Part shown: one piece after another, positions 3,231 to 32,744 of the stretch
Position numbering within the stretch: position 1 is the stretch's first letter
Layout: every line of letters starts with the position of its first letter
Assembly (NCBI GenBank): GCA_035557125.1
Contig: DATMEC010000256.1
Coordinates: 1-37,459, forward strand
DNA length: 37,459 nt
Origin: Steroidobacteraceae bacterium
GTDB lineage: Bacteria; Pseudomonadota; Gammaproteobacteria; Steroidobacterales; Steroidobacteraceae
Direction: 5' to 3'
Notes under the pieces: model-generated
What the model saw: only the letters and a program-made list of their open reading frames with translations
Database searches by the model: none
Told to the model about the DNA's origin: nothing
Position numbers and translations under genes: made by a program

Positions 3231-3252
3231 AGGGCGCGGGCCGTCGAATCAG
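3214..3252. terminator. Imperfect hairpin at the convergent SGNH / GH-A gene junction
   Basis: CTGATCGAC (3214..3222) pairs with GTCGaATCAG (3243..3252): 9 bp with a 1-nt bulge. An inner GCGC/GCGC stem lies at 3224..3227 and 3234..3237. Only 18 nt separate the two stop codons. There is no U-tract, so the call is weak. Confidence 0.25.
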
Positions 3253-4172
3253 GGTGAATCAGGCGCCAGCAGTTTCCTGAATTCGCGGTAGGCCAGTTTC
3301 TTCCCGAATCCGCCTTCAGGCCCGTACGTCAGGCCCCAGCCACTGTCCTTGTCGGGCGGCGCAGGATAGTGCTCGTCGTTGAGCTGGTAGTTGAAGATCA
3401 CTTGGATGGCGGGATCGGCCCCCAGGATGCCGCGCTCCGGGTCGTAGTATTCCTCGACGTACCTGCGCTGTGCTTCCTCGCCGCCTTCCTGGTCGGCCGT
3501 GGTCCAGCCGGTTTCCGTGATCCAGATCGGCTTGCGGCCGGCGACGAGGCGCTTCACGGCCTCGAGTTGCTGGCTCCGGTGGAAGACGTAGTAGTGCACG
3601 GACACGGCGTCGACGTATTCGAGCAGCCCGGATTCGATGAGCTTCCTCAAGTACGCGACGCCTTCTTCGGTTGCGCCGACGGCCGGGGCGACGATTCGCG
3701 CGTCTGGTTGGGCGGACCTGATGATGGAGTGCGCGTCGCGGAGCATTTTCATGTAGTCACCCGGCGCAATCGGGCCGCCCCACCAGCTCATCTCCGGCTC
3801 GTTCGCGATTTCCCATGCGGCGACGCCGGGCACGCCATGGACCTCCTTCCGGACGAGGGCCGGCCATCCGGCGGTATCAGCGGAATACCAGGGCAGGAGC
3901 GCGAGCACCCGGATCCCCTTGCGCGCCATGTCGGCGACGAAGGGGAAGTCCTTCGCCGGGTCCTCGTAGTCGCCGCGGATCCAGAAGGGCCCCGCGGCGC
4001 GCAGGTCGTCGAGGACCTTCGCGGCCTCCGGCGTGTATTCGTCGCCGTAGGCGCCGTGGTGGAAACAGACGCCGAGCTCGACGCGCTCGCGCGCGGCCGC
4101 CGTCGACAGGTGGCACAGGGCCAGCGCGATGAGAGCTACGTGGCGCCGTCGAATTCGCGGGCCCGGAATCAT
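3249..4172 (-). CDS. Secreted clan GH-A (beta/alpha)8 glycoside hydrolase, family unassigned
   Basis: C-terminal 307 codons of ORF 3249..5450, starting at ATG 4172 (MIPGPRIRRRHVALIALALCHLSTAAA signal peptide). WEIANEPE (acid/base NEP motif) and IWITETGW (nucleophile Glu) are typical of GH5/GH39-like clan A enzymes. ATGA overlap with the upstream gene. Confidence 0.7.
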   Translation of the reverse strand: MIPGPRIRRRHVALIALALCHLSTAAARERVELGVCFHHGAYGDEYTPEAAKVLDDLRAAGPFWIRGDYEDPAKDFPFVADMARKGIRVLALLPWYSADTAGWPALVRKEVHGVPGVAAWEIANEPEMSWWGGPIAPGDYMKMLRDAHSIIRSAQPDARIVAPAVGATEEGVAYLRKLIESGLLEYVDAVSVHYYVFHRSQQLEAVKRLVAGRKPIWITETGWTTADQEGGEEAQRRYVEEYYDPERGILGADPAIQVIFNYQLNDEHYPAPPDKDSGWGLTYGPEGGFGKKLAYREFRKLLAPDSP

Positions 4173-5380
4173 ACGATTCGCTGCGCGGCCGGCAGATGCC
4201 GCGGAGACAGGCGGGCCAACAGCGCCGGGGCGCCCGGAGGGCGCAGCTCCGGGTGGTCCGCGAGAAAGCCGCGCTGCGCGCTCGCCGCCGTGTGCGACGC
4301 ATCGCCGGGCGCCCAGCCCGGCGGCTTCACGAGATAGGCGAGCTTGATGCGCCAGCCGCGCGCACTGCGCAGGTCGCGCGCGAGCAGCAGGAACTCGCCG
4401 AAGTAAAAGTCCACGAAGCTGGTGACGTTGATGTCGCGCGTGATGCCGTATTCGATCTTCACCTCGTCGCGCAGGGGCTGGAGCGTGCCGAACATCCAGT
4501 CCCAGAACGGCAGCAGCGAGCAGAAGTTCCTGTCCATGTAGAGCGGGTTCTTCGCGTGATGCACGCGATGGTAGGAGGGCGTGATGATGAAGAAGCGCGC
4601 CGGGCCGAAGCGGCCCGTGCGGAACGAGCGCTCGCCCGCGTGGATGAAGGTCCCCCAGGTGACCTCGAAGGCCATGAGCACGACCAGCATGGCGGGCTCG
4701 ACGCCTAGCAGCATCAGGATCGGTACCTGCACTAGTGCGCTGTAGTAGCCCTCCGCGAAGAAGTGCACCCAGGCCACCGTCATGTTCAGGTTCTGGGGCG
4801 CGTGGTGCGGTGAGTGCAGGCACCACAGCAGGCGCACCTTGTGCGCGCTGTAATGCCAGGTCCACATGGACAAATCCCATATCAGCAGGGCATAGAGCCA
4901 GCCGTACCAGGTGTAACCGACATGAAACAGCGCAGACTGCTGGAAGTACGGCAACAGCAGCCAGAATACGTCGATCACGATCAGCCGCGGCAACAGGCCG
5001 AGCAGCAGACCTGCGAAAAAGGTGGGCTGATATTCGAGCGCCGTCGCCCGGAACAGTCGCGCCGCCATGCCCGGGCTGTGCCCCTGGGCGCGCTCCTTGC
5101 CGGCCTGCACGATGAAGAAGCGCGCGAGCTCCCACAAAGTCAGCAGCGAAATCAGCAGCCCGACCACCGCCAGCACGCTGTCGTGGTAATCGCCGTCGTT
5201 GAAGGGCTTGAGCAAGTCGGAGACAAATCCCTCGCCGCCGGCGGTTTTTTGCGCATAGTGCACGAGGCCGACCGCGAGGCCCCAGGTCGTGTAGACGAAC
5301 ACGGCAGCGAACAGCAACGCTTCGAGGTGCCGCCAGATCGGCGGGGTATTGCGCCAGGCCGGAATCCCAAGTGGTGTCAT
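4169..5380 (-). CDS. Integral-membrane fatty-acid hydroxylase / sterol desaturase superfamily di-iron oxygenase
   Basis: Part of ORF 4169..5512, starting at ATG 5380 (MTPLGIPAWRN...). Several hydrophobic helices. Three His boxes: HYSAH, HSPHH and HRVHH. ATGA overlaps at both ends (5377..5380 and 4169..4172). Confidence 0.8.
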   Translation of the reverse strand: MTPLGIPAWRNTPPIWRHLEALLFAAVFVYTTWGLAVGLVHYAQKTAGGEGFVSDLLKPFNDGDYHDSVLAVVGLLISLLTLWELARFFIVQAGKERAQGHSPGMAARLFRATALEYQPTFFAGLLLGLLPRLIVIDVFWLLLPYFQQSALFHVGYTWYGWLYALLIWDLSMWTWHYSAHKVRLLWCLHSPHHAPQNLNMTVAWVHFFAEGYYSALVQVPILMLLGVEPAMLVVLMAFEVTWGTFIHAGERSFRTGRFGPARFFIITPSYHRVHHAKNPLYMDRNFCSLLPFWDWMFGTLQPLRDEVKIEYGITRDINVTSFVDFYFGEFLLLARDLRSARGWRIKLAYLVKPPGWAPGDASHTAASAQRGFLADHPELRPPGAPALLARLSPRHLPAAQRIV

Positions 5381-8300
5381 GGGATGCGCTCGAATTCGAC
5401 GGCGTCGATGTAGACCGCGCCCGGCTCGTCGGAGGCCTGGCCGAAAACAAGGGTCAACCGGGCCTCGATCGCGCCGACCGGCACTACAGCTTCCAGTTCG
5501 TAGTCGTGCCATGAATTGGTAGGTGTCGCCGCGTCGGCAATCGCCCGCTCTTGCACGCCGAGCATTGCCGGGCCGCCGAAATAGTCGGCCCAGTGGTTGT
5601 AGAACTCAATTTTCATTGATGCTCGGTCATTCGGATCGGTCAGTTTCTCCTGTGAACGCACGAGCGCCGCGAGCCTTGCACGGACCCGCTCGCCGCTGGC
5701 GACGCTGATGCTTTGGCTCGTGCCGGAATAGTTGCCACCGCCGATCCCCTGACCGGAGATCTTCAACGCGTGAGTGCCATCGCGCACCGCCTCGCGATGC
5801 ACGAGCACATTCGGTTTGCCGTCGACGATATTGCCGAAGATGTGCCAGCCGGCCGGCGAGCCACCGTTCTCGTCGAATCCACCGTTTCGAAAAGTCCGGC
5901 TGCCAGGTTCGTCGGCGAGCTCGTAGACGCGGACCCAATCGACGAGCAAGCGCTGCGGCCACACCGTCGTCGCGTCCGGTGGCGGCAGGAAGTCGCCGCC
6001 GACCGCCGTATCGATGGCGAGCCGCATCGGCGCGGTGAAACTCGGCAGAAGGTATCCCACCTCGTCGTTGTAGTACGTCGCGTGATGCATGTCGTCGACG
6101 TAGAACCGGAGCTGGTTGTCGACCCATTCGCAGGCGAAGGTGTGAAATCCTTCGTCATACGAAACGAGCTGGCCGTCGATCCCCGTCTGCTGCGCGGTTC
6201 CAAACGACTCGTGTGAATCCGGGTTTTGCGTGCCCCAGCGAACGCTGCTCGAAGTGATCGTCGGCTGGTCGCCGCGATTCTCCATGATGCCGATCTCAAC
6301 CCCGGCCGGCCACGGCCCATCGGGCAGCAATCGGATGGCGGGCCACACGCCGCTGCCGCCAGGCAGCCTGGCCCGGACTTCCCACCGCCCGAGCCGTTGT
6401 GCCATTCGACTGGCGACCTTGCCGGAGCGATACGGCAGGCCGCGCGACGGCCTGTTCTCGGACAAAAGTTCCAGCTTGCCGTCCTTGACGCGGACTTGTC
6501 CCGGCAGAGAGTCCTGCAGCGAATCGTTCGTCGGCCGACTGTCGTCGATCAGCTCCCATTTGTCCGGGTCGAGCGAGTCGAAGTCCTCACTCCACACCAA
6601 CCGCCACTTGGGCGGCGGTTCGGGAATCAGCGTCAATCTGACGAGCGCGCCTCCCGCTGCGGCGAGGGGGAGGGTGAGCTCGTCGACTGGCGTCACTTCG
6701 CGCGATTCGAGCTTGAAGCCCTGTTGCGTGGCGAGATCGTCCCGGTAGGTCTCCGCCTGAAACATTCCCGCCGGCAGGAATGAGAGCGGTACCCGTACAT
6801 CTCTAGCGTGCCGATCCGTCATCGCACCGACCCACCAATCGTTGCCGCTGCGGCGAGCGATCACCACTTCCTCGCCCACCCGGGCAGCCAGCGCTACCGT
6901 GTCGTCCCAAGTGGAAGGTATAGCGGCCATGAGCCGTGTGAGCGGATGCCGGCGATAGGCCGAGGGATAGTCGGCCATCATCGGCAAGTGATTCTGCAGC
7001 ACGACGTACGAGGCGAGCATCCGGGCGGGCGTGCCGATCACCAGCGGTTCGGCGACCCTTGGCTTGAACCGGTCGAGCGGCACGCCGCGGAGCGAGCCCT
7101 GGTGGTAGTCGAGCGGGCCGGCGAGCATTCGCGTGAGCGGCACGGTGACGTCGTGCTCCGGCGTCACGCCGACTTCGTCCCACTTGCCATGCTCCAGGTT
7201 CAGCACAGCCTCGCTGTTTAGCAGGTTCGGAAAGGTCCGCTCGAGGCCGGTCGGCGCCGCGACGCCGTGGAACGTCACGGTCAGGTAATTGTCGGCCGCG
7301 AGCTGCAGCAGCTCGCGCTGGAATCCGACCATCTCCTGGTCGTCGCGGTCCATAAAGTCGATCATCACGCCCTCGATGCCCCAGGCGCGATAAAGCGGAA
7401 ATGCACGGGCCATGTGTCGTTTCGCCGCCTCCCAGTGCATCCACAGCCGAAGCCGCACGCCCTTCTGCCGCGCATAGGCGATGACTTCCTGTAGATCGAG
7501 TCCGTCGATTCCTTGGGTGATGTCGGCGCCTTCGTACGGCACGATAGGCCCGCCATACCAGGCCAGGCCGTTGACGCCGTCGAGCGTGTGATAGGGGATG
7601 CCGTACTCTGCGCAGAAGTCGATGTAGTACCTGGCCGTTTCGGTGTTGAGACCCATCTTGAACGGCACGCCCGTTTCAAAGAAATCGTTCCACCACGGGA
7701 ACGTCGTCTTGCCCGGCCTGATCCACGAAGTGTCGGCAATCGCGCTCGGCGCGTTGAGCTTGAGTACGGTGTCCGATTCGACCAATTGCCGCGCCTCCTG
7801 ACCAACCAGGATCAGCCGCCAGGGCGACTCGTGCGGCAGGGTGGCGCGGACGGCAATCTTCGGCTTGTCCGGACGGGGCGAGAGCCGGCTGACCAATGTG
7901 TTGCCGGAGCCCGTGCCTCGCGCGAGATACATGCCGGCGTAGTCGGTGAGGTTCGCCTCGAGGACGACGGCCCAACCGACGCCCGACAGTTCCACCAGGA
8001 GCGGCAACCCCAGCAGCCAGTCGGCTGGAATCTCGTCGACGCCTCGCCGCTCGTAGCGGCCTTCGTGCGACGTGGTGAAGCCCGCGAGCGGCAGCGCCGT
8101 TGTGACCGCGCCTCTCGGAAAGGCAAATTCCGTCAGCTCGTCGGCCAGTTCCAGATCCGACCAACCCGGCTGTTTGGGAAACCGGTACCGCAGCGCGACG
8201 CCGTCGTCATACGCGCGAACCACGAGCTGCCATTCAAACAGCTTCGCTCCGCGCTCGCGCAGCGTAATCGTGGCCTGGGATGCGCGATCTACCACGTGCC

Positions 8301-8628
8301 TGCGCTTGCCGGGATATTGCTCGAACGAGTCGTCAATCTCGATCGAGTCAGTGCCAACGACCACGCTATTGCGACCGAGCTCCATTCCCTCATTCAGGCG
8401 AACGCCCAGGTTCGATGCGTCGACGACCATTCGATCCGACAGGGAAACCCGGTACTGGACCTGGGTCGCCGCTCCGGACGCCGCACTCGTGAAGAGTTCG
8501 AACTCTAGGCGCCCACTTGGAGAGCGGACGACCACCGGATTGCTCTGTGCCGCTTCGCCCGCGCCGACTGCTCCGCACAGCAATACGCAAAGTCGGGCTA
8601 GGCGGGCAAGGAATGTCGTCATTGACAC
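5377..8628 (-). CDS. Secreted three-module enzyme: GH97 alpha-glucosidase-like + GH16 beta-glucanase-like + C-terminal CBM-like domain
   Basis: ORF 5377..8628 (GTG 8628; alternative ATG 8622). Signal peptide MTTFLARLARLCVLLCGAVGAGEAAQ. GH97 signature GIEGVMIDFMDRDDQEMV. GH16 block GVWPAIRLLPDGPWPAGVEIGIMENRG starts after about residue 670. The last ~175 aa (FRNGGFDENGGSPAGWHIFGN...) resemble a CBM4/9/22-type sugar-binding jelly roll. Confidence 0.8.
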   Translation of the reverse strand: MSMTTFLARLARLCVLLCGAVGAGEAAQSNPVVVRSPSGRLEFELFTSAASGAATQVQYRVSLSDRMVVDASNLGVRLNEGMELGRNSVVVGTDSIEIDDSFEQYPGKRRHVVDRASQATITLRERGAKLFEWQLVVRAYDDGVALRYRFPKQPGWSDLELADELTEFAFPRGAVTTALPLAGFTTSHEGRYERRGVDEIPADWLLGLPLLVELSGVGWAVVLEANLTDYAGMYLARGTGSGNTLVSRLSPRPDKPKIAVRATLPHESPWRLILVGQEARQLVESDTVLKLNAPSAIADTSWIRPGKTTFPWWNDFFETGVPFKMGLNTETARYYIDFCAEYGIPYHTLDGVNGLAWYGGPIVPYEGADITQGIDGLDLQEVIAYARQKGVRLRLWMHWEAAKRHMARAFPLYRAWGIEGVMIDFMDRDDQEMVGFQRELLQLAADNYLTVTFHGVAAPTGLERTFPNLLNSEAVLNLEHGKWDEVGVTPEHDVTVPLTRMLAGPLDYHQGSLRGVPLDRFKPRVAEPLVIGTPARMLASYVVLQNHLPMMADYPSAYRRHPLTRLMAAIPSTWDDTVALAARVGEEVVIARRSGNDWWVGAMTDRHARDVRVPLSFLPAGMFQAETYRDDLATQQGFKLESREVTPVDELTLPLAAAGGALVRLTLIPEPPPKWRLVWSEDFDSLDPDKWELIDDSRPTNDSLQDSLPGQVRVKDGKLELLSENRPSRGLPYRSGKVASRMAQRLGRWEVRARLPGGSGVWPAIRLLPDGPWPAGVEIGIMENRGDQPTITSSSVRWGTQNPDSHESFGTAQQTGIDGQLVSYDEGFHTFACEWVDNQLRFYVDDMHHATYYNDEVGYLLPSFTAPMRLAIDTAVGGDFLPPPDATTVWPQRLLVDWVRVYELADEPGSRTFRNGGFDENGGSPAGWHIFGNIVDGKPNVLVHREAVRDGTHALKISGQGIGGGNYSGTSQSISVASGERVRARLAALVRSQEKLTDPNDRASMKIEFYNHWADYFGGPAMLGVQERAIADAATPTNSWHDYELEAVVPVGAIEARLTLVFGQASDEPGAVYIDAVEFERIP
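6280..6297 (-). other. GH16 catalytic motif variant E-I-G-I-M-E (canonical E-I-D-I-M-E)
   Basis: The reverse complement of 6280..6297 reads GAG ATC GGC ATC ATG GAG. The middle Asp of the ExDxxE motif is replaced by Gly (GGC). Confidence 0.85.
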
Positions 8629-8638
8629 GGTTGCGCCG

Positions 8639-11140
8639 TCAGCGCCAGCGCACCACGACTTCAGCCGCGTCCTCGAATTCGAGCGTCGCTTGTGGAGTCA
8701 TCGGCTCCATCTGGCGCAGCTGTTCGAGTTTCTGCTTTTCCCAGTAGACGTCGCTCAGGGCCTCGAGTGGGTCCAGCATGCGTACGACCTCCGATTGCAC
8801 GTCCGTCGCCGCTCCGTTGACCGTCGCCCCCTGCGCCGTGTCGAATCCGTGCAGGATCAGCTTGATCTTCCGGAACCGCCCGGTAAAGCTCCCTTCGGGG
8901 CGCGAGAAGCGGACTTGCTTCGTCGCTGGGTCGAACGTGATCAGCCGCTTGTGAAACCGCCCCTTGCGGTAGTCAAGAGTTTCGCCGTCATCGTCGTAGT
9001 AGGCGAACTCGCTCCGCTCGGCGCCATTGAAGACGTGGACGTAAAGCAGCGGCCCCGGATCGTCTCGTGTCGATTGCACCTTTCCCTGCATCGGAATGAT
9101 TGCCGACGCCTTTGCGAAAATCGGGATCCGGTGGCCTGCATAGTCCGCTGTGTGGATGCGGCCGCCGTCAAGCCGCTCGTCCGTGAACAGGTCATACCAT
9201 TGTCCTGCGGGCAGGTACGTCGACTTCCTCTGCTCGCGGCTCGTCATGGGATTCACCAGGAGCCCGGGACCGAACAGGAACTCGTACTGATAGTCCGGGT
9301 TGTAGACGATGGCGTCGAAAGGCGAATCCATGGCGAGGCTGCGGCTCACCGGCATGCCGGTTTGGGACGATTCGAAAAAGGTCGAGTAGAGATATGGCAT
9401 CAGCTCGTACCGGAACCCGATGTAAGCCTTCGAAATCGCCTCGACTTCCTCGCCGTAAGCCCAGGGCTCGTTGGCCGCCGTGTACTGCCCGCGATGGTTG
9501 CGCAGGTACGGGGCGAAGACGCCGACCTCGATCCAGCGACGGAACAGGTCCTTGTTGCCGTCGCCGATATAGCCGCCGAGGTCGGGACCGGTGAACGGCA
9601 CGCCGGACAATCCCATCTGGTTGATGAGCAGCGCGCCGAGCAGGATGTGCTCGTCCTTCGCCTGGTTGTCGCCGCTCCACACCGCGGCGTAGCGCTGGAT
9701 TCCCGCAAACCCCGAGCGGCTGAGCACGAAGGGTCGCCGGTTCCCGCCGTATTGCTCGGCCGACTCGAACGCGGCGCGCGCCATCAGCATGCCGTAGTAG
9801 TTCTGCGCCTCGAGCGCCGAGGCCTCCTGGCCGTCGAAGTCGAACACCACGTTGTCCGGCATGGCTTGCCCGTCGATCGCGGGCTCGTTCATGTCGTTCC
9901 AGAGACCGTGGATCCCGAGGTCCTGGTATAGCTTCATGTTGTCGACCCACCAGCGGCGCCCGCGCGGGTCGGAGAAGTCGACGAAATGATTGGTGTTGGG
10001 CGCGATGTCCGCGATCCAGAGTTCGCCGTCCGCGTAGCGCAGGAAGACGTCTTCCTTAAGACCGCTCTTGTACTGATCGTACGTGTCGTCGATCGCGATC
10101 CCGGGGTTGACCGAGGCGGTCAGCTCGATGTCCATGTCGCGCAACGTATCGGCGAGGCGCCGCATGTCGGGGAAACGTTCTTTATTGATGCGAAATGGCT
10201 GGTATCGGTGCAGGTAGTCCGCGTCGAGGACGATGCCGTCGAGAGGTATGCCCTTGGCCCGGAACGTGTTGGCGATGAACATCACCTGGGCTTCCGGATA
10301 GTAGCTGCACCGCGACTGCTGGTAGCCGAGGCTCCAGCGCGGCGGCAGGGGCATCCGGCCGGTGAGGCCGGTGTAGTGCTCCAGTACTTTTCCGGGAGAA
10401 GCGTCGAACATGAAGAACTGGTCCAGTGCGCCGCCGTCGAAACTGAAGGAGGCGAAGCGGCGGTTGGAGGCGCCGAAATTGAAGACGGAACGATAGGAGT
10501 TGTTGAAGAAGAGGCCGTAGACCTTTCCGTGATGCAGTCCCATGAAGAAGGGAATGCTCACGTACATGGGAATCTTGGGATCGTCGTACTGGTAGTTGTC
10601 CGTGTTCTTGAGCGTGATCACCGACCCGCGCCGGTCAAGGTTCCCGAGCGCCTCGCCCATGCCGATGAAGCGCTCTGCCTCCTGCAGCCGCTTGTAGATG
10701 GTCAGCTTGCGGCCGATCGTCGTGATTCCGAGCTCCCTGCCGCGCAGGTCCTCGTTGATGACGGCGCCGCCTGCATCCTTGAAAGTGAAGCGCAAGTCCG
10801 GCCGCAGTTCGACCTCGGTCGTGACGCTCGACGTTTTCACTACGACGATAGGATCAGCGGCGCTTACGCTGAACTGCGAAAAGTCTGGTACCTCGTCCGT
10901 CTTGAGGGCGTAGCCGGCGTGCCGCTCCACTCCCTCGGGCAGGACGCGCACGCGGATGACGTGGGGAGAGTAGACATCTACAGAGAAATCGGCCGTCGCG
11001 GTGCGCCCGGCGATGCCGTGCGCCGTTTTCTCGTACGACAGCACAGGGCCGAGATTGTCGGCGTGCGCAATGGGCGCCATTGCGCCCAGCATCAATAGGC
11101 CAGCACCGGCCGTCCGGACCACGGAACGAGTCGCCATCAT
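8639..11140 (-). CDS. Secreted GH31 alpha-glucosidase family enzyme
   Basis: C-terminal 833 codons of ORF 8639..11389, starting at ATG 11140 (MMATRSVVRTAGAGLLMLGAMAPIAHA signal peptide). GH31 signatures GLWNDMNEP (nucleophile Asp), WSGDN and GPDLGGY. ATGA overlap with the cytochrome b561 stop codon. Confidence 0.9.
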   Translation of the reverse strand: MMATRSVVRTAGAGLLMLGAMAPIAHADNLGPVLSYEKTAHGIAGRTATADFSVDVYSPHVIRVRVLPEGVERHAGYALKTDEVPDFSQFSVSAADPIVVVKTSSVTTEVELRPDLRFTFKDAGGAVINEDLRGRELGITTIGRKLTIYKRLQEAERFIGMGEALGNLDRRGSVITLKNTDNYQYDDPKIPMYVSIPFFMGLHHGKVYGLFFNNSYRSVFNFGASNRRFASFSFDGGALDQFFMFDASPGKVLEHYTGLTGRMPLPPRWSLGYQQSRCSYYPEAQVMFIANTFRAKGIPLDGIVLDADYLHRYQPFRINKERFPDMRRLADTLRDMDIELTASVNPGIAIDDTYDQYKSGLKEDVFLRYADGELWIADIAPNTNHFVDFSDPRGRRWWVDNMKLYQDLGIHGLWNDMNEPAIDGQAMPDNVVFDFDGQEASALEAQNYYGMLMARAAFESAEQYGGNRRPFVLSRSGFAGIQRYAAVWSGDNQAKDEHILLGALLINQMGLSGVPFTGPDLGGYIGDGNKDLFRRWIEVGVFAPYLRNHRGQYTAANEPWAYGEEVEAISKAYIGFRYELMPYLYSTFFESSQTGMPVSRSLAMDSPFDAIVYNPDYQYEFLFGPGLLVNPMTSREQRKSTYLPAGQWYDLFTDERLDGGRIHTADYAGHRIPIFAKASAIIPMQGKVQSTRDDPGPLLYVHVFNGAERSEFAYYDDDGETLDYRKGRFHKRLITFDPATKQVRFSRPEGSFTGRFRKIKLILHGFDTAQGATVNGAATDVQSEVVRMLDPLEALSDVYWEKQKLEQLRQMEPMTPQATLEFEDAAEVVVRWR

Positions 11141-16089: not shown

Positions 16090-16125
16090 CTTGCGCATCC
16101 TTTCGCTTCTGGCAACAGGCCCATG

Positions 16126-23329: not shown

Positions 23330-23379
23330 CGACCCTCCGCCTACTTGTGGTAGTGGATCAACGACGCGAGCCGGCCCAA

Positions 23380-23408
23380 AATATAGGCTAGCACCGGGAT
23401 CGTTGCAA
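23380..23408 (-). promoter_or_regulatory. Sigma70-like promoter for the minus-strand operon
   Basis: On the minus strand, TTGCAA (23408..23403) is followed by a 17-nt spacer and TATATT (23385..23380). This is the only AT-rich patch in the divergent intergenic region. Confidence 0.4.
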
Positions 23409-23436
23409 CCAGATGCAACCATCGCCAACCAGTTGG
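23402..23436. promoter_or_regulatory. Three 10-bp-phased nGCAACCA repeats plus two short palindromes (candidate operator cluster 1)
   Basis: CAACCA occurs at 23406, 23416 and 23426. The palindrome GTTGCAAC lies at 23402..23409. CCAAC-CA-GTTGG lies at 23425..23436. The cluster overlaps the predicted -35 element. Confidence 0.5.
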
Positions 23437-23552: not shown

Positions 23553-23567
23553 ACGCGATTGACCACA

Positions 23568-24344: not shown

Positions 24345-24349
24345 GCCCG

Positions 24350-26577: not shown

Positions 26578-27398
26578 GCATCGCGCCGCGAAGCGGGGCG
26601 TGGAGCGCTGCGCTGCTGGTCTCGTTCGCTGCGATCACGATCTTGCCGATCCTCGGCATCGTGCTCCTCAGCCTGCAGCCGGAGCAGGCGCAGCTGTCCG
26701 GCTTCGAGCTTCCGGACCGCCTGCACTTCGAAAACTATGCGCGCGCCTGGGACGTCGCGCAGTTCGCGAGCTACCTGCGATCGAGCGTGATCGTCAGCGT
26801 CGCGGTGGTGGCGGGCACGGTCGTGGTGTCGACGTTGAGCGGCTACGCCTTCGGCACCATGCGCTTTGCCGGCCAGGACGTTCTCTTCTACCTGCTCCTG
26901 GCTGGCCTCGTCATACCCTTCGAGGCCGTGATTGTGCCGCTGTACGTCGAGCTCCGTGCCGGGCATCTCACGAACACCTACTGGTCGGTCGTCCTGCCGC
27001 TGATCGGCGTAAATTCCTCGTTCGGGACGTTCTGGATGCGCGCGTATTTTCGTGCGGTGCCCCGCCAGCTGATCGAGGCGGCGTCGCTGGACGGCGCGGG
27101 GTCGCTGCGTATCCTCTGGAGGGTCCTGTTGCCGGGGGCCCGCCCGGCGCTGCTGACGCTGGTGGTCCTTGTCTTCATGTGGTCGTGGAACGAGTTCCTG
27201 CTCCCGCTCGTGATGCTGTCGCGCGAGGACTTGCGCACCGCACCGCTCGGGCTCGCATTCTTCGCCGGCCGCTACACGGTCGACCGTTCCGGCATGGCGG
27301 CCGCGGCGGTGATGGTCGCGCTTCCGGTGGTGGTGCTGTTCATTGCCACGCATCGGCGCTTCGTGCATGGCATGTGGGTGGGGGCAGTGAAGCAATGA
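26574..27398 (+). CDS. ABC sugar transporter permease (MalG/UgpE-like)
   Basis: GTG 26574 within ORF 26073..27398 (GTGA overlap). EAA loop IEAASLDGAGSLRILWRVLLPGARPAL. Confidence 0.85.
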   Translation: MSIAPRSGAWSAALLVSFAAITILPILGIVLLSLQPEQAQLSGFELPDRLHFENYARAWDVAQFASYLRSSVIVSVAVVAGTVVVSTLSGYAFGTMRFAGQDVLFYLLLAGLVIPFEAVIVPLYVELRAGHLTNTYWSVVLPLIGVNSSFGTFWMRAYFRAVPRQLIEAASLDGAGSLRILWRVLLPGARPALLTLVVLVFMWSWNEFLLPLVMLSREDLRTAPLGLAFFAGRYTVDRSGMAAAAVMVALPVVVLFIATHRRFVHGMWVGAVKQ

Positions 27399-28168
27399 GG
27401 CCACCGCCCTTGCCGCCGCCGCTGCGGCTGACGCCGGCGCAGGTGACGTCGTTCCGGCGCGACGGCTTCGTCCGCGTCGAAGCGCTCACCGCGCAGGCCG
27501 AAGTCGAAGTCCTCCGCGGCCTGTACGACGAGCTGTTTCATCGGGAGGGCGGGTTCGACGCCGGCGATCGCATCGAACTGAACGCTGACCTCGCTCATGC
27601 GCCGCTGCCGCAGATCGTCAACCCCGAACGCTATGCGCCACGTCTGATTGAGGGACAGGCGTATCGCAATGCGCGGGAGATCGCCCGACAGTTGCTGGGG
27701 TTCGACTGCGTGCCGACCGGCAATCACGCCATCCTGAAGCCGGCCCGGATCGGCGGCGCCACGCCCTGGCACCAGGACGAAGCGTACTGGGATCCGCGAT
27801 TTTCCCACCGTGCGGTGAGCATCTGGCTTGCGCTGCAACCCGCGACGCTCGAGAACGGCTGCCCGCGCTTCATACCGGGGACTCATCGAGGGCCGGTATT
27901 GCCGCACGAGCTGATCTCGGCGGATTCGCACGGGCTGCGACTTTGCAAGCCGGTGCCGGATGCGCCGGAGATATCGTGCGAGTTGCCGGCGGCCGGGGCG
28001 ACCATCCACGACGGAAGAACGGTGCACAGTGCCGGGCCGAACCTGTCCGGGCAGCCGCGTCGCGCACTGGTGTTCGGATTCGGCCTCGCTCCCGTGCCGC
28101 TCGACACGCCCAATCGCTATCCGTGGCAACGGCCGGAATGGTCGGGCCCGATCCTTCGAGGACACTGA
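27395..28168 (+). CDS. Second PhyH-family Fe(II)/2-oxoglutarate oxygenase
   Basis: ATG 27395 within ORF 26555..28168 (ATGA overlap with permease 2). Triad context ATPWHQDEAYW and distal His DGRTVHSAGPN. No signal peptide. Confidence 0.7.
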   Translation: MRPPPLPPPLRLTPAQVTSFRRDGFVRVEALTAQAEVEVLRGLYDELFHREGGFDAGDRIELNADLAHAPLPQIVNPERYAPRLIEGQAYRNAREIARQLLGFDCVPTGNHAILKPARIGGATPWHQDEAYWDPRFSHRAVSIWLALQPATLENGCPRFIPGTHRGPVLPHELISADSHGLRLCKPVPDAPEISCELPAAGATIHDGRTVHSAGPNLSGQPRRALVFGFGLAPVPLDTPNRYPWQRPEWSGPILRGH

Positions 28169-28169
28169 C

Positions 28170-29270
28170 ATGCTTCGAATCGGAGTGCTGGGACTCGGCA
28201 GCGTATTCCTCGGGCCCTACCGCCAGTTGATTCGCCAGCTCGAGCAAAGCGGCCAGGCGCGCCTGACCGCCGCATTCGACATCGACCGCGAAAAGACTGC
28301 AGCGGTCGCGGCCACGCATCCGTCGCTCGCGACGCCCGCCACTGCGGGCGAGCTCATCGCGCGCGACGACGTCGATGCGGTCCTCGTGCTGACCAGCATG
28401 AATGAGCACGCGGAGCTTGCGCAGGCAGGTCTTCGAGCGGGCAAGCACGTCCTGGTCGAGAAGCCGATGGCGACGAGCCTCGCAGCCGCGCATGAGCTGT
28501 TGCAGCTCAGCAAGCGCGCGAAAGGCCTCCTGGTCTGCGCCCCGCACATCGTGCTGTCGCCGACGTACCGGGCTATGCATGCCGAAGTGCAGGCCGGCGG
28601 GATCGGCAAGGTCGTGCTGGCCCGCGCACGTTACGGATGGGCCGGTCCCTGGTGGGGACGATGGTTCTACCGTCCGGGTGGGGGCGCACTGTTCGACCTG
28701 GCCGTCTACAACCTGAAGAGCCTCTGCGGATTCATGGGTCCCGTCCAGCGCGTGAGCGCCATGGTCGGCACGGCGATCCCCAGACGCATGGCCGAGGGTG
28801 TCGAGATCGACGTACTGGCCGACGACAATGCGCAGGTCCTCCTGGATTTCGGCGAAAGCCGGTTTGCCTGCATCACGACCGGCTTCACGATGCAGAAGTA
28901 CCGCAGCCCGGCCATCGAGCTCTACGGCACCGAAGGTGTCCTGCAGATGCTCGGCGACGACTGGGCGCCGCAAGGCTACGAACGGTGGGGCAAGGAACGC
29001 GAGGTGTGGGAGTTCCACGAGGAGAGCGAGCCACAGTGGCCATGGACCGTCGGGTTGCGCCATCTCGTCGAGTGCGTGGCCGCCGGGACGCGGCCCGTGA
29101 ACCAGCCTGAGCACGCCTTGCACTGCCTCGAGGTCATCCTGGCGGCCCAGACTTCGGCCCGGGAAGGGCGGCACGTGTCGGTCGAATCCGGCTTTCCGGC
29201 GCTCGACTTCCGCAGCTTGCCGCCCGAAACGAACGACCACCGCCGCCGGCACGACCCGAGAACCGCGTAA
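28170..29270 (+). CDS. Gfo/Idh/MocA-family NAD(P)-dependent oxidoreductase
   Basis: ATG 28170 within ORF 27960..29270, 1 nt after the PhyH stop codon. Rossmann start MLRIGVLGLGSV and the family motif HVLVEKPMA. Confidence 0.85.
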   Translation: MLRIGVLGLGSVFLGPYRQLIRQLEQSGQARLTAAFDIDREKTAAVAATHPSLATPATAGELIARDDVDAVLVLTSMNEHAELAQAGLRAGKHVLVEKPMATSLAAAHELLQLSKRAKGLLVCAPHIVLSPTYRAMHAEVQAGGIGKVVLARARYGWAGPWWGRWFYRPGGGALFDLAVYNLKSLCGFMGPVQRVSAMVGTAIPRRMAEGVEIDVLADDNAQVLLDFGESRFACITTGFTMQKYRSPAIELYGTEGVLQMLGDDWAPQGYERWGKEREVWEFHEESEPQWPWTVGLRHLVECVAAGTRPVNQPEHALHCLEVILAAQTSAREGRHVSVESGFPALDFRSLPPETNDHRRRHDPRTA

Positions 29271-29285
29271 GGACCGCGCACACCG

Positions 29286-30386
29286 ATGGCATCGATCACG
29301 ATCGAAGGCGCCAGCCGCAGGTTCGCGGACGGTACCTGTGCACTGGACGGCGTGAACCTTGCCATCGAGGACGGCGAATTTCTCGTGCTCGTCGGGCCCT
29401 CCGGTTGCGGCAAGTCGACGCTGCTGCGGGCCGTGGCGGGCCTCGAGTACCTCGACAGCGGCCGCGTGCTCATCGGCGGGGTGGACGTCACCGGCAAGCC
29501 CGCGGGCGAGCGGGACGTTGCGATGGTGTTCCAGAACTATGCGCTGTACCCGCAGATGACGGTACGCGACAACATCGAGTTCGGCCTCAAGTCGCGCGGC
29601 ATGAGCGGGCACGAAAGGCGCGAGCGCGTTGCCGACGTCGCAGCGCTGCTCGGACTCGGGTCGCTGCTGTCGCGCCGTCCTTCAGAATTGTCCGGTGGCC
29701 AGTTGCAGCGGGTCGCCATGGGCCGCGCCATCGCGCGACGGCCCCGGGCGTTCCTGATGGACGAGCCGCTCTCCAACCTGGACGCCCAACTGCGCGCATC
29801 CATGCGCTCCGAACTTTCCAGGATGCGCGAGCGCCTCGCGGTCACGACCATCTATGTCACGCACGACCAGGTCGAGGCCATGACGCTGGGGGAACGCGTG
29901 GCCGTGATGCGGGAAGGCGTGCTTCAGCAGTGCGACACGCCGCGCAGGCTCTTCGACCAGCCGCGTAACCGGTTCGTGGCGACCTTCATGGGGTCGCCGC
30001 CGATGAACCTGCTGAACGCGACGATCAGCGAGGGCGTCGTTCGCTTCGGCAGGTACGAACTGCCGCTAAAAGCCGGCGTCAGACTACCCGTCGCCGTCCC
30101 AACGGAACTGTTCATCGGCCTGCGGCCGGGAGACTTTGCTCTCGATCGCAGCGCGCCCGGCCATTGGCCGCGAATCGAGGTGGTGCCGCACGCCGTCGAG
30201 GAGCATGGACACCAACGGATCCTGCGCTTTCGCGCAGATGGCCCGTCGGGCGGCGGCCCCGAGGCCGACGTCAGCGTGCTCCTGAGCGGCCGGGATGTCG
30301 TCGCGGTGGGGGAGAGGTTGCGCCTGGGCGTCGACACGGCGCATGTGCACTTCTTCGATTCTGAAAGCGGCAATGCGCTGGACTGA
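29286..30386 (+). CDS. ABC sugar transporter ATP-binding protein (MalK/UgpC/MsiK-like)
   Basis: ORF 29286..30386. Walker A GPSGCGKST, signature LSGGQLQRVAMGRA, Walker B FLMDEPLSNLD, and a C-terminal regulatory (TOBE-like) domain. Confidence 0.9.
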   Translation: MASITIEGASRRFADGTCALDGVNLAIEDGEFLVLVGPSGCGKSTLLRAVAGLEYLDSGRVLIGGVDVTGKPAGERDVAMVFQNYALYPQMTVRDNIEFGLKSRGMSGHERRERVADVAALLGLGSLLSRRPSELSGGQLQRVAMGRAIARRPRAFLMDEPLSNLDAQLRASMRSELSRMRERLAVTTIYVTHDQVEAMTLGERVAVMREGVLQQCDTPRRLFDQPRNRFVATFMGSPPMNLLNATISEGVVRFGRYELPLKAGVRLPVAVPTELFIGLRPGDFALDRSAPGHWPRIEVVPHAVEEHGHQRILRFRADGPSGGGPEADVSVLLSGRDVVAVGERLRLGVDTAHVHFFDSESGNALD

Positions 30387-30401
30387 ACGGAGAGCGAAAT
30401 G

Positions 30402-32744
30402 ATGCGAATGCTGTGCGCCACAGTCACCTTTTCATTCTTGCTCGCTGGCTACGCCCTGGAGGTACGGTCTGACGCGACTGCCTCAGTGCCCGATGCCCGC
30501 ACCGGCATCTATGACCCCAGTCTCGACACTCGGGTGGAAGCCCTGCTGGGCAGGATGACGCTCGAGGAGAAGGTCGGCCAGCTGGTCCAGTACTCAGCGG
30601 GCCAGCCGACCGGTCCCGGCACCGGGCGCACGGACTACGAGGACATGATCGCCAAGGGCCAGATCGGCGCCCTGTTCAACATCTCGACGGCGAAGGAAAC
30701 CAATGCGTACCAGCGATTGGCCGTCGAGAAATCCCGCCTCAAGATTCCGCTCGTTTTCGGGCTGGACGTCATCCACGGCTTCCGCACGATATTTCCGGTT
30801 CCGCTCGCCCTGGCGTCGACCTGGGATCCGCCGCTGGTGGAACAGGCGGCCCGGGTGGCGGCGCGCGAAGCCTCGGCCACCGGGATTCGCTGGACGTTTT
30901 CTCCCATGGTGGACATCGCCCGCGATGCGCGCTGGGGCCGCATCACGGAAGGCGCCGGTGAAGACCCGTATCTCGGCTCGGAGATGGCGGCCGCCTATGT
31001 TCGCGGCTACCAGGGCACGCGCCTCGACGCACCGGACAGCCTCGCCGCCACCGCCAAACATTTCGTCGGATATGGGGCGGCGGAGGGCGGCCGCGACTAC
31101 AACACCACCGAAATCTCGGAGCACACGCTGCGCCAGATCTATCTGCCGCCGTTTCGCGCAGCCGTGGACGCCGGCGCAGCCACGATCATGTCCGCGTTCA
31201 ACTCGCTGAACGGCATTCCGACGTCCGCCAATCCGTTCATCCTGCGCCAGATCCTGCGCGAGGAATGGGGCTTTCGCGGCGTCGTCGACAGCGACTGGGA
31301 ATCGGTGCGCGAGCTGATACACCACGGCGTCGCGATCGATCGCGAGACGGCGGCCTTGAAAGCCTTCATGGCTGGCGTCGACCTCGACATGGCGAGCAGC
31401 GTCTACCACGATCACCTGGTGAAGCTGGTGAGCGCCGGCAAAGTCCCGGAAGCGCGGATCGACGATTCGGTGCGGAACGTCCTCAGGCTGAAGTTCGCGC
31501 TCGGTCTTTTTGAGCGACCTTATGTCGACGAAGCGCGCGAGCATGACGCCATGCTGCGGCCTGACGGCCTCGCGCTGGCGCAGAAGGCGGCCGAACGGTC
31601 CTTCGTACTGCTGAAGAATGACTCCGTGAGTGGGGATGCACCCATACTTCCGCTTTCGGACCGCGCGGGTCGCATTGCGCTGATCGGGCCGCTGGCCGAC
31701 GATCTCTCGAGCGCGCTGGGATCCTGGGCCGGGCTGGGCAAGGTCGAGGACGTCGTGTCTTTCCGCACGGCGCTCGCGAGGCGCGTCGGAGAACAGAACC
31801 TCGTTCATCACAAGGGTGTCGGCATCACGGAAGGTTCCGACGAGGACCTGGCCGCCGCCGTGGCGGCTGCCGCGAAAGCGGACGTCGTGATCCTGACGCT
31901 GGGCGAGGACGGCGGCGGAATGACCGGGGAGGCCACGTCGCGGGCGTTCCTTGGTCTGCCGGGCCGCCAGCAAGAGCTGCTGGAAAAGATCGTCGCCACG
32001 GGAAAGCCGGTGGTCCTTGTTCTCTTCAGCGGGCGGCCACTGACGCTGCCCTGGGCGTTCGAAAAGGTCCCGGCGGTGCTGGCAGCGTGGCTCCCCGGCA
32101 TCCAGGCGGGACCCGCGCTCGTGCGCACGCTCTATGGCGAGTCGAGTCCAACGGGAAAGCTGGTGGTCAGCTGGCCGCGCAGCGTGGGCCAGTTGCCGCT
32201 CTATTACAACGCGCTCAACACGGGACGTCCGGCCGACAAGAGTGACCTGACGAATCCCCTCGGCGGAGCCGACGACACGTACGTGTCGCGTTACCTCGAC
32301 GAGCGAAACGATCCGCGGTTCCCGTTCGGCTTCGGCCTTTCCTATACGACTTTCGGCTATGGCCCCACGAAGATCGACGGCAGCCGGCTCGAGGCTTCAG
32401 GACTCACGGCGAAACTTCGCGACGCCGCAGGTCGGGACGAAGGCGTGTTGACGGCCAGCGCCGAGGTCACGAACACAGGCTCACGCCCGGGCGAAGAGGT
32501 CGTTCAACTTTACGTTCGGCTCATCGGGACCAGTACTTCGCAGCCAGTCCGTGCGCTGAAGGGATTCCAGAGAATCTCGCTCGCTCCCGGCGAAACCAAG
32601 AAGGTGACGTTCACCCTCGAGCCCGATGCACTCGCGCTGTGGAACGATCGCAACCAATGGGTCGTCGAGCCGGCGAAAGTGGCCGTGTGGATCAGTCCCG
32701 ATTCCGCGCACGGCACGCCCGCCACGCTCCAGATCCTGCCATAG
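30402..32744 (+). CDS. bglX: Periplasmic GH3 beta-glucosidase (BglX-like), paralog B
   Basis: ORF 30399..32744 (tandem ATGs at 30399 and 30402; GGAGAG upstream). Near-collinear with paralog A: 94 of the first 100 aligned residues after ARTGIYDP are identical by my manual count. There is a short insertion near residue ~690. Confidence 0.9.
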   Translation: MRMLCATVTFSFLLAGYALEVRSDATASVPDARTGIYDPSLDTRVEALLGRMTLEEKVGQLVQYSAGQPTGPGTGRTDYEDMIAKGQIGALFNISTAKETNAYQRLAVEKSRLKIPLVFGLDVIHGFRTIFPVPLALASTWDPPLVEQAARVAAREASATGIRWTFSPMVDIARDARWGRITEGAGEDPYLGSEMAAAYVRGYQGTRLDAPDSLAATAKHFVGYGAAEGGRDYNTTEISEHTLRQIYLPPFRAAVDAGAATIMSAFNSLNGIPTSANPFILRQILREEWGFRGVVDSDWESVRELIHHGVAIDRETAALKAFMAGVDLDMASSVYHDHLVKLVSAGKVPEARIDDSVRNVLRLKFALGLFERPYVDEAREHDAMLRPDGLALAQKAAERSFVLLKNDSVSGDAPILPLSDRAGRIALIGPLADDLSSALGSWAGLGKVEDVVSFRTALARRVGEQNLVHHKGVGITEGSDEDLAAAVAAAAKADVVILTLGEDGGGMTGEATSRAFLGLPGRQQELLEKIVATGKPVVLVLFSGRPLTLPWAFEKVPAVLAAWLPGIQAGPALVRTLYGESSPTGKLVVSWPRSVGQLPLYYNALNTGRPADKSDLTNPLGGADDTYVSRYLDERNDPRFPFGFGLSYTTFGYGPTKIDGSRLEASGLTAKLRDAAGRDEGVLTASAEVTNTGSRPGEEVVQLYVRLIGTSTSQPVRALKGFQRISLAPGETKKVTFTLEPDALALWNDRNQWVVEPAKVAVWISPDSAHGTPATLQILP

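Follow-up and report, generated by a model that had tools for sequence, protein, structure and literature searches.

The 37,459-nucleotide stretch analysed here (the window hereafter; contig DATMEC010000256.1, positions 1 to 37,459, of assembly GCA_035557125.1 from a Steroidobacteraceae bacterium) carries two divergent operons in which genes for glycoside hydrolases (GHs) and sugar transporters are mixed with six genes for non-hydrolytic enzymes. We tentatively read it as a glucan utilisation locus of the TonB-receptor type, centred on beta-1,2-glucan, in which periplasmic glycosidases are combined with three oxidative units, each conserved independently of the others. Hydroxylation dependent on Fe(II) and 2-oxoglutarate (2OG) would remove or open a substituent of an imported sugar, followed by NAD(P)H-dependent redox chemistry, isomerisation and phosphorylation. 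An earlier note on this DNA had proposed a single oxidative module built into the glucan locus. All six genes lie where that note had placed them, each in the Pfam family claimed for it and above the gathering score, but they fall into three separable units: the dioxygenase PhyH2, the Gfo/Idh/MocA oxidoreductase (Gfo), the bicupin and the ROK kinase form a self-contained cassette linked to an ATP-binding cassette (ABC) importer, mostly without any GH (cassette A); the membrane di-iron hydroxylase stands apart from it, associated with GH144-like, GH97 and GH128-like genes (unit B); and a major facilitator superfamily (MFS) transporter with a second dioxygenase, PhyH1, makes up the third (unit C). 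The note had overlooked that the bicupin and the "kinase" belong with PhyH2 and Gfo. Its contention that the redox genes are not passengers held up, as comparable gene neighbourhoods are found in other genomes, and for two of the three units in more than one phylum; synteny supports their functional membership of the locus, with the strongest case for cassette A and the hydroxylase.

Locus architecture and the likely glucan

The window contains a TonB-dependent receptor, exported GHs, inner-membrane sugar importers and a local regulator, all of them in operons, the set that marks a TonB-receptor-based locus (Table 1). The GH144-type protein is a full-length relative of BDI_3064 (PDB 5z06; E = 3.5e-208 over residues 29-730), an enzyme that frees sophorose from beta-1,2-glucooligosaccharides, and also matches the Cpin endo-beta-1,2-glucanase (PDB 5gzh; E = 5e-116); together with three GH3 enzymes and the TonB receptor, this match points to beta-1,2-glucan. 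By family, GH31 and GH97 are of alpha-glucosidase type and GH16 and the GH128-like enzyme of beta-1,3-glucanase type, and their presence alongside GH144 suggests a mixed or decorated, broader or more complex glucan. Described beta-1,2-glucan clusters comprise a GH144 endo-glucanase, a BDI_3064 exo-enzyme and GH3 beta-glucosidases (PMC12102758); the window resembles them in its GH144-type gene, flanked by genes for GH3 enzymes and a TonB-dependent receptor, and adds GH31, GH97, GH16 and GH128-like genes. A term search of one paper on beta-1,2-glucan enzymes returned no mention of an oxidoreductase or desaturase.

Genes were called by analysis of open reading frames (ORFs) and codon-position GC, followed by Pfam scans of all large ORFs, and the start codons used in the overlap analysis are inferred. 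The minus-strand operon comprises 12 genes (23329 to 3249) and the plus-strand operon eight (23559 to 32744); the two diverge, with 229 nt of intergenic sequence separating the bicupin gene from the GntR gene, and an imperfect inverted repeat in this sequence may be a GntR operator. A scan of the minus operon gave no excess of internal promoter or terminator consensus, the counts being equal to or below those in shuffled sequence. As had been claimed, the non-hydrolytic genes other than that for Gfo share 4-nt ATGA/GTGA overlaps with their neighbours, and the Gfo gene starts 1 nt after the PhyH2 stop codon; overlaps of this kind are common in compact GC-rich operons (the G+C content of the window is ~66%) and show operon membership and argue for co-transcription, nothing rarer. 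The nearest relatives of each protein tested came from Steroidobacteraceae metagenome-assembled genomes, at 81-93% identity.

Conservation of the three oxidative units

Cassette A has the layout GntR, then SBP-permease-permease-PhyH2-Gfo/Idh/MocA-(MalK)-bicupin-ROK, where SBP is the solute-binding protein of the importer. PhyH2 scores 108.1 bits against PF05721 (cut-off 22), and the catalytic set comprising the HxD...H motif and the 2OG-binding arginine (H114, D116, H203 and R214 in PhyH1 numbering) is invariant across both PhyH groups in the alignment. Its nearest solved relative, by a wide margin, is EvdO2 (PDB 4xab; E = 1.6e-51, 44% identity over 227 residues). Gfo possesses both the N-terminal Rossmann and the C-terminal alpha/beta domains; none of the NCBIfam equivalog models scored above its cut-off (best iolG, 85.5 vs 355; BT_2159 family, 31 vs 650; levoglucosan dehydrogenase, 49.5 vs 650; further sub-threshold matches to UDP-GlcNAc 3-dehydrogenase and xylose dehydrogenase), and the PDB neighbours are scyllo-inositol/L-glucose dehydrogenase and 1,5-anhydrofructose reductase, at E of about 1e-18 to 1e-21. 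The cupin protein is a bicupin, as the earlier note had it, because its AlphaFold2 model (predicted local distance difference test, pLDDT, 87.7) shows two jelly-roll domains. ROK gave only sub-threshold scores against specific NCBIfam kinase models, and the presence of this kinase in the cassette implies that the end product of the pathway is a hexose or amino-hexose. The SBP resembles binders of chito-, xylo- and malto-oligosaccharides only weakly (E no better than 1e-21), with no beta-1,2-glucooligosaccharide-binding protein recognisable among these matches.

Homologues of PhyH2 at 56-67% identity sit in the same arrangement in Asanoa iriomotensis (Actinomycetota; L087), in two other metagenomic lineages (L088, L089) and in L174/L175, and every component of the cassette, bicupin and ROK included, is orthologous to its window counterpart (34-75% identity by tblastn). 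Bicupin orthologues (42-70% identity) lie beside PhyH-Gfo in L087, L088 and L089, with a Cupin_2 gene at that place in L174; ROK is kept next to the bicupin, and the GntR regulator with the cassette, in all four. L174/L175 presents the cassette as a stand-alone seven-gene operon (GntR, then SBP-permease-permease-PhyH-Gfo-cupin-ROK). No GH adjoins it in L087, L089 or L174, and GH125 and GH3 do so in L088. In the window, the bicupin and ROK lie across the divergent promoter from the rest of the cassette and head the long GH operon. The Steroidobacteraceae loci L001, L005, L006 and L008 conserve the plus-strand block but have it directly abutting the hydroxylase unit, indicating that the units are shuffled even between close relatives. 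An apparent PhyH-Gfo fusion (P0195) proved to be a frameshift artefact with out-of-frame stretches at both junctions, a case illustrating that fusion calls from metagenomes need sequence inspection.

About 1,800 homologues of the unit B hydroxylase were detectable. The His boxes described in the earlier note, HYSAH, HSPHH and HRVHH, are present and invariant in 15 homologues with 42-83% identity to the window protein (the eight-histidine motif H176, H180, H189, H192, H193, H271, H274 and H275, plus H206 and H247, all invariant), and a simple Kyte-Doolittle scan gave four transmembrane-like segments. Among NCBIfam subfamily models, only that of the ornithine-lipid hydroxylase OlsE was matched, with 44 bits against a 475-bit cut-off. 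Retaining one genome per species left 80 loci, whose neighbouring ORFs were clustered and of which 76 species-level loci were counted; the commonest neighbour families were GH97 (14 loci), Gfo/Idh/MocA (13) and GH144-like (13). In 11 of the 76 loci, all from Bacteroidota (Chitinophagaceae, Ferruginibacter, Flavobacterium), the hydroxylase is immediately preceded by a GH144-like gene on the same strand, 5-148 nt away. Of the 58 loci spanning 12 kb or more, at least 33 have recognisable clusters of GH, SusC/D or sulfatase genes within 7 kb. For example, three GH144-like genes are followed in L002 by hydroxylase, Gfo, PhyH, GH43, GDSL, GH97 and GH3 genes, and in L085 GH30 precedes GH144-like genes, the hydroxylase, Phosphodiest, GH31, two Gfo, SDR and ROK. 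In four Bacteroidota loci (L022, L033, L051, L085), the hydroxylase is followed within a few genes by GH31.

In six protein clusters (P0006, P0008, P0010, P0011, P0013, P0014) originating from JGI, ENA and Logan assemblies, as well as at L001:10001-12076, the hydroxylase and the GH128-like domain form one in-frame protein of ~690 residues. The linker, inspected in P0010, is hydrophobic and in frame and corresponds to the signal peptide of the separate GH128-like protein, which would place the glycosidase domain in the periplasm and the di-iron site on the cytoplasmic side; in the window the two are ORFs sharing an ATGA. Di-iron enzymes of the FA_hydroxylase superfamily require an electron donor. 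The cytochrome b561 gene lies two genes upstream of the hydroxylase in the window, and in three or four Bacteroidota loci haem proteins of the PSCyt1/PSCyt2/PSD1 and PSCyt1-DUF2231 kinds instead lie beside the hydroxylase. A conserved block downstream of the GH144-like and hydroxylase genes in L011, L021 and L039 encodes PSCyt1/PSCyt2/PSD1 (DUF1549/DUF1553), DUF1501, a xylose-isomerase-like TIM barrel, a PSCyt1-DUF2231-LRR membrane protein and an ADP-ribosylglycohydrolase. Elsewhere, a hydroxylase 50% identical to that of the window (L084, 8001-17236) stands beside an aminoethylphosphonate-like set (Aminotran_5, Aldedh, Phosphodiest, FAD oxidase, DUF5690), and Phosphodiest genes also adjoin the hydroxylase in the GH144 loci L085, L033, L037, L051 and L060.

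The function of unit C is the least constrained of the three. The PDB relatives of PhyH1 are weak, comprising amino-acid and ectoine hydroxylases (E 1e-22 to 1e-16), with EvdO2 matched at E 7e-4 only, and the b561 scores 51 against the NCBIfam CybB equivalog model (cut-off 170). The MFS-PhyH1 adjacency is kept only among near relatives, at 65-92% identity (L004, L091-L094, L105), sometimes with a GH144 gene adjoining, and PhyH1-like genes at 41-42% identity occur in the Bacteroidota hydroxylase/GH144 loci L002, L009 and L022. The earlier note had suggested following the recurrence of particular gene orders: the permease/PhyH/Gfo order recurs as part of cassette A, whereas the MFS/PhyH/b561/GH31 chain, in full GH144-MFS-PhyH1-b561-GH31-GH97/16-hydroxylase, was found only in L004 and L091, which belong to the same lineage. 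Metagenomic PhyH1 homologues number at least 569, and the recognisable neighbours of the distant ones are sugar-catabolic, with Gfo-type oxidoreductases in nine loci. Seven homologues at 58-63% identity on presumed marine contigs (L143, L145, L147, L150, L160, L162, L168) share a cluster of GntR, UxaC, PhyH, GlcNAc-2-epimerase-family, aldo-keto reductase, Glucosamine_iso and SBP5 genes, also with a mannitol-dehydrogenase-like gene; GlcNAc-2-epimerase, Glucosamine_iso, UxaC and Gfo were confirmed by Pfam, and the mannitol-dehydrogenase-like and SBP5-like assignments were read by eye. This cluster is another uncharacterised sugar pathway with a PhyH enzyme.

Proposed chemistry and competing explanations

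Localisation, assessed by simple N-terminal inspection and Kyte-Doolittle hydropathy, places the oxidative and hydrolytic enzymes in different compartments. All seven glycosidases have signal peptides, there being no cytoplasmic glycosidase among the window genes; the SBP carries a lipoprotein-type signal; the hydroxylase and b561 are membrane proteins; and PhyH1, PhyH2, Gfo, the bicupin and ROK are devoid of signal peptides. Moreover, both PhyH starts overlap the stop of an inner-membrane importer gene, that of the MFS transporter before PhyH1 and that of the second ABC permease before PhyH2. Given the missing signal peptides and these overlaps, the soluble oxidative enzymes would act after import, on a small molecule and not on the polymer.

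The protein families, the catalytic motifs, the signals for localisation, the structure of the operons and the conservation of gene order are observations, whereas the substrate and every chemical step in what follows are inferred. The oxidative units probably finish modified sugars that ordinary glycosidases cannot process. Cassette A would be a portable cytoplasmic route from an imported, hydrolase-resistant modified sugar to a hexose phosphate. PhyH2, with Fe(II), 2-oxoglutarate and O2, would hydroxylate a C-H bond at or beside the substituted sugar carbon, resulting in O-dealkylation, opening of an ether or anhydro ring, or oxidative expulsion of an amine or another leaving group; Gfo would then reduce or re-set (epimerise) the resulting carbonyl, the bicupin would isomerise the Gfo product, and ROK would phosphorylate the product of the bicupin. 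The substituent may be an O-alkyl group, an anhydro bridge or an amine. In unit C, PhyH1 may carry out a comparable single hydroxylation on a monosaccharide-sized compound imported by the MFS transporter.

Unit B is probably a glycan-locus oxygenase, with the inner-membrane di-iron enzyme working together with the GH144-like, GH97 and GH128-like enzymes and oxidising a lipophilic or ether-type substituent of a glycan or glycoconjugate; cytochrome b561 would be the likely local electron donor. We draw this reading by analogy only, with alkylglycerol monooxygenase, a member of the FA_hydroxylase superfamily, and MocD, both of which are membrane di-iron oxygenases that cleave ethers by hydroxylating the carbon next to the oxygen. 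MocD, of the MocD/MocE rhizopine O-demethylase, acts on an O-methyl cyclitol alongside the Gfo-family protein MocA, but belongs to the FA_desaturase family, whereas the window enzyme belongs to FA_hydroxylase, and alkylglycerol monooxygenase is likened to it by superfamily membership.

The dioxygenase-reductase pairing of PhyH2 and Gfo has a counterpart in KanJ/KanK, which reportedly convert kanamycin B to A (work attributed to Sucipto et al. in 2012). KanJ, of the PhyH family, hydroxylates a substituted sugar carbon and expels the amine, leaving a ketone that the NADPH-dependent KanK reduces to a hydroxyl; the adjacent PhyH2-Gfo pair matches this arrangement, but KanJ (PDB 6s0r and others) is remote from PhyH2 (E 5e-5) and biosynthetic. 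A cytochrome P450 demethylase of 6-O-methyl-galactose is said to reside in porphyran utilisation loci (Reisky et al., in 2018). There, too, an oxygenase inside a glycan locus removes a decoration blocking glycosidases and downstream metabolism, although the P450 works with ferredoxin and reductase partners and the window encodes Fe/2OG and membrane di-iron enzymes. The demethylation of 6-O-methyl-galactose by P450s is documented (PMC6292453). The sulfo-ASDO pathway follows the logic proposed for cassette A in that the Fe/2OG dioxygenase SqoD and the NAD(P)H reductase SquF convert sulfoquinovose via 6-dehydroglucose to glucose, the first enzyme removing the substituent to leave a dehydro-sugar that the second reduces, with a GntR regulator and a transporter in the cluster (PMC10507154). 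SqoD, however, is of the TauD family (PF02668) and SquF SmoB-type, compared with PhyH (PF05721) and Gfo/Idh/MocA here, where a bicupin and ROK are added; nothing in the window points to a sulfonate substrate, and the Pfam scan of its proteins gave no PF02668 or PF00296 match and hence no TauD- or luciferase-type sulfoquinovose oxygenase as in sulfo-ASMO/ASDO clusters.

The PF05721 enzymes FJS and PHYHD1, described in 2025, O-demethylate 2'-O-methylribose with release of formaldehyde (PMC12709175), and share with the window proteins the Pfam family, the HxD...H chemistry, an O-methyl ether on a sugar hydroxyl as target and a catabolic role. They differ in acting on nucleosides and are not reported in sugar-importer operons (PMC12709175). 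The earlier note had offered two possibilities, removal of a decoration or C3-oxidation with elimination, both of which are plausible; this demethylation of a sugar hydroxyl strengthens the former as chemistry. EvdO2, the closest relative of PhyH2, is an orthosomycin oxygenase thought to oxidise sugar ring carbons in oligosaccharides (PMC13374393), and the group as a whole (EvdO2, EvdO1, AviO1, HygX) oxidises sugar-ring C-H bonds. It is, however, biosynthetic and orthoester-forming, in actinomycete antibiotic clusters, whereas PhyH2 sits in a catabolic ABC-kinase operon.

Several observations weigh against the proposed chemistry. PhyH1 and PhyH2 share no more than 21-31% identity (E 1e-4 to 1e-12) with proven sugar O-demethylases, namely those of Acidisoma, Sphingomonas, Poribacteria and Fadolivirus, and are not their orthologues; moreover, Gfo and the bicupin are always present, yet would be superfluous if PhyH2 merely demethylated. 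No sequence relative of the bicupin is present in the PDB, and only generic matches were obtained for its fold (oxalate decarboxylase, quercetinase, MncA, seed globulins; template modelling score of about 0.65, 9-15% identity), so that its function cannot be derived from the fold. The Gfo-bicupin pair also occurs without PhyH in two variants. In L172 (4514-20996), bicupin, Gfo and ROK stand among a GMC/Gluconate_2-dh3 pair of the glucoside-3-dehydrogenase type, a 3-keto-disaccharide hydrolase and AP_endonuc_2; in L173 (1575-10837), a SIS-Gfo-bicupin group is divergent from a GntR-ABC operon with GH4. These variants suggest that the Gfo-bicupin core may be a keto-sugar salvage device with interchangeable front ends, of which PhyH is just one. 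As to unit B, the hydroxylase had no match in a sequence search of the PDB, and its AlphaFold2 model, built with 15 sequences, consists of long helices with a pLDDT of only 70.8, for which Foldseek found nothing in the PDB below E = 4; 25 of the 58 loci of at least 12 kb show no recognised glycan gene cluster within 7 kb. Finally, b561 is confined to one lineage (L004, L091) in this gene order, and most PhyH1 homologues at 57-74% identity have other neighbours than those in the window.

The main rival, in line with the second possibility offered in the earlier note, is a redox-elimination (3-keto-sugar) pathway, which we regard as unlikely. Here Gfo would be the key catalyst, acting on imported disaccharides either as a glycoside 3-dehydrogenase or as a GH109/SqgA-type NAD+-dependent glycosidase, while the bicupin would handle the keto or enone intermediate, ROK would trap the hexose, and PhyH2 would be an accessory or alternative front end. 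The L172 gene set and, in L173, the proximity of GH4, itself a C3-oxidising glycosidase, fit such a pathway, as does the lack of a cytoplasmic GH in both the window and the canonical cassette, and NAD+-dependent glycosidases with a Gfo-like fold are known (PMC10755693). Nevertheless, the Pfam scans found no AP_endonuc_2, 3keto-disac_hyd or GMC gene in the window, Gfo falls far below the thresholds of the BT_2158/BT_2159 3-dehydrogenase and levoglucosan dehydrogenase models, and no GH109 or SqgA entry appeared among its PDB matches at E <= 1e-10. Elimination chemistry also leaves the invariably adjacent, catalytically intact PhyH2 without a role.

That the redox genes, or some of them, belong to other areas of metabolism and are merely co-transcribed with the GHs in this lineage appears improbable. 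PhyH1 might then hydroxylate amino acids or compatible solutes, as the identity of its nearest solved relatives would allow, the hydroxylase might modify membrane lipids, and b561 might be engaged in superoxide or quinone chemistry. The lineage-specific b561, the dissimilar neighbours of most PhyH1 homologues, the hydroxylase loci away from glycan clusters and the frequency of 4-nt overlaps in GC-rich genomes are all compatible with this explanation. It is opposed by the hydroxylase synteny with GH144-like, GH97 and Gfo genes, which crosses phyla, and by the in-frame GH fusion in relatives; by the conserved association of cassette A with a ROK sugar kinase and an ABC importer for sugars; and by the sugar clusters (Gfo, GlcNAc 2-epimerase family, Glucosamine_iso, UxaC) that surround those distant PhyH1 homologues with recognisable neighbours.

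A role of cassette A in catabolism of 1,5-anhydro-D-fructose or 1,5-anhydro-alditols is the least probable of the alternatives, very unlikely in our estimate. Gfo would be an anhydrofructose reductase, PhyH2 a C-1 oxygenase turning 1,5-anhydro-mannitol or -glucitol into the aldose, the bicupin a mannose or mannose-6-phosphate isomerase and ROK a hexokinase; a variant would have levoglucosan-type anhydrosugars opened oxygenolytically. A C-1 oxygenation step, with no gene given, reportedly exists in Sinorhizobium morelense (Kuhn, Yu and Giffhorn, in 2006). The scheme employs all four enzymes, needs no GH and fits the stand-alone cassette; the nearer PDB relatives of Gfo include 1,5-anhydrofructose reductases (2glx, E 5e-18; 4koa, E 1e-15), and EvdO2/HygX-type enzymes abstract hydrogen from the sugar carbon next to the ring oxygen (PMC13374393). 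Yet Gfo is no closer to anhydrofructose reductase than to other Gfo enzymes, the GH31 of the locus resembles alpha-glucosidases and not glucan lyases, nothing ties anhydro-sugars to beta-1,2-glucan, and a tblastn search of 72,556 plasmids (PLSDB) found no PhyH2 homologue at E <= 1e-20 on a rhizobial plasmid, yielding only eight distant matches (31-38% identity), which lie in unrelated contexts in Burkholderiaceae and actinomycetes.

Glycan utilisation loci are interpreted almost wholly through their glycoside hydrolases, while the porphyran P450 demethylase and the sulfoquinovose oxygenases illustrate that a lone "odd" gene can unlock a substrate; here there are three such conserved units, two of them across phyla. 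The earlier note knew of no described pathway combining these enzymes, and neither did our literature search, which found no paper on PhyH, FA_hydroxylase or cassette A in glycan loci and none combining GH144 with "dioxygenase" and "gene cluster". There is a real chance that the locus holds two undescribed enzyme systems. We rate as rather doubtful, when taken jointly, the more specific proposal that both a glycan-locus family of di-iron oxygenases and an O2-dependent Fe/2OG dioxygenase-Gfo-bicupin-ROK cassette are new to glycan catabolism. The former, from Bacteroidota and Gammaproteobacteria and sometimes fused to a periplasmic glycosidase, would oxidatively cleave a substituent of ether, alkyl or lipid type on a glycoconjugate containing beta-1,2-glucan, with electrons from locus-encoded haem proteins; the latter would turn a hydrolase-resistant modified, anhydro- or amino-sugar into hexose phosphate. 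If so, the GH144-linked membrane di-iron oxygenase, GH-fused in some relatives, would represent a new class of carbohydrate-locus enzyme, and natural beta-1,2-glucans or related glycoconjugates could bear decorations so far unconsidered. Since cassette A is compact, is found in a named actinomycete with a deposited genome (Asanoa iriomotensis) and has a soluble SBP, dioxygenase and reductase, a ligand screen could quickly reveal a new sugar-catabolic pathway.

Gene inventory and flanking regions

The GH assignments in the earlier note (GH144-like, GH31, a GH97+GH16 fusion, GH3 twice within the range that it covered, and a clan GH-A enzyme, here a weak PF11790 match) were correct. The nearest PDB structures of GH31 are alpha-glucosidases, and its interpretation as a sulfoquinovosidase or a glucan lyase is unsupported by sequence comparison. 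The C-terminal ~200 residues of the GH97+GH16 protein have no Pfam match; among its relatives, GH97 stands alone in L005 and L008, and the GH16 part is weaker in L001. The TonB-dependent receptor has an ATG at codon 31, followed by a signal-peptide-like stretch.

Table 1. Features of the window, each operon listed in its order of transcription
Feature	Position	Strand	Place	Family evidence
Bicupin, 281 aa	22484..23329	-	minus operon, 1	PF07883, 45.1 bits
ROK-family sugar kinase	21531..22487	-	minus operon, 2	PF00480, 112.8 bits
TonB-dependent receptor	18335..21466 (alternative start 21559)	-	minus operon, 3	PF25183, PF00593, PF13620
GH3a, exported	16126..18318	-	minus operon, 4	PF00933, PF01915, PF14310; signal peptide
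GH144-type enzyme, exported	13882..16098	-	minus operon, 5	PF10091
MFS sugar/H+ symporter-type transporter	12545..13879	-	minus operon, 6	PF00083, 379 bits
PhyH1, cytoplasmic Fe(II)/2OG dioxygenase	11709..12548	-	minus operon, 7	PF05721, 115.5 bits (cut-off 22)
CybB-type di-haem cytochrome b561, inner membrane	11137..11712	-	minus operon, 8	PF01292, 97.6 bits, residues 4-184/191
GH31, alpha-glucosidase-type, exported	8639..11140	-	minus operon, 9	PF01055, PF13802, PF21365, PF17137
GH97+GH16 fusion, 1083 aa, exported	5377..8628	-	minus operon, 10	PF14508, PF10566, PF14509, PF00722
FA_hydroxylase (sterol desaturase) superfamily membrane di-iron oxygenase	4169..5380	-	minus operon, 11	PF04116, 90 bits (cut-off 31)
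GH128-like clan GH-A glycosidase, N-terminal signal/anchor	3249..4172	-	minus operon, 12	PF11790, weak, E 5.3e-9
Imperfect inverted repeat GATCGTTGCA-N6-TGCAACCATC	23398..23423		divergent promoter region	single 10-nt pair, 90% complementarity
GntR/HutC-type (UTRA) regulator	23559..24344	+	plus operon, 1	PF00392, PF07702
CUT1-type ABC importer	24350..27398	+	plus operon, 2-4	PF01547, PF13416, PF00528
SBP lipoprotein of the importer	24350-25705	+	plus operon, 2	
First permease of the importer	25705-26577	+	plus operon, 3	
Second permease of the importer	26574-27398	+	plus operon, 4	
PhyH2, cytoplasmic Fe(II)/2OG dioxygenase, EvdO2-like subfamily	27395..28168	+	plus operon, 5	PF05721
Gfo/Idh/MocA NAD(P)-dependent sugar oxidoreductase, cytoplasmic	28170..29270	+	plus operon, 6	PF01408, PF22725, PF02894
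MalK-type ABC ATPase	29286..30386	+	plus operon, 7	PF00005, PF17912
GH3b, exported	30399..32744	+	plus operon, 8	PF00933, PF01915, PF14310; signal peptide
GH3c	49..2367	+	convergent on the GH128-like gene; outside the range of the earlier note	Pfam
DUF4886 protein	about 2364..3230	+	beside GH3c; outside the range of the earlier note	Pfam

The GH3-DUF4886 pair adjoins the hydroxylase and GH128-like genes in L001 and L006 too and thus belongs to the same conserved neighbourhood. GH3b and GH3c are 82%-identical paralogues in direct orientation that bracket the whole locus, and in L001 and L006 a GH3c-like gene follows the ABC ATPase, which is the place of GH3b in the window; together, these relationships suggest a duplication or rearrangement that joined the units. 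A 733-residue "shadow" ORF (3249-5450, minus strand) running through the hydroxylase gene in another frame is an artefact of high G+C and not a gene, and many other long out-of-frame ORFs across the window are likewise high-G+C artefacts. The right flank (32766-37459) encodes an agmatine deiminase (PF04371), a YdcZ-type membrane protein, a second TonB-dependent receptor and a patatin-like phospholipase, which look unrelated to the locus.

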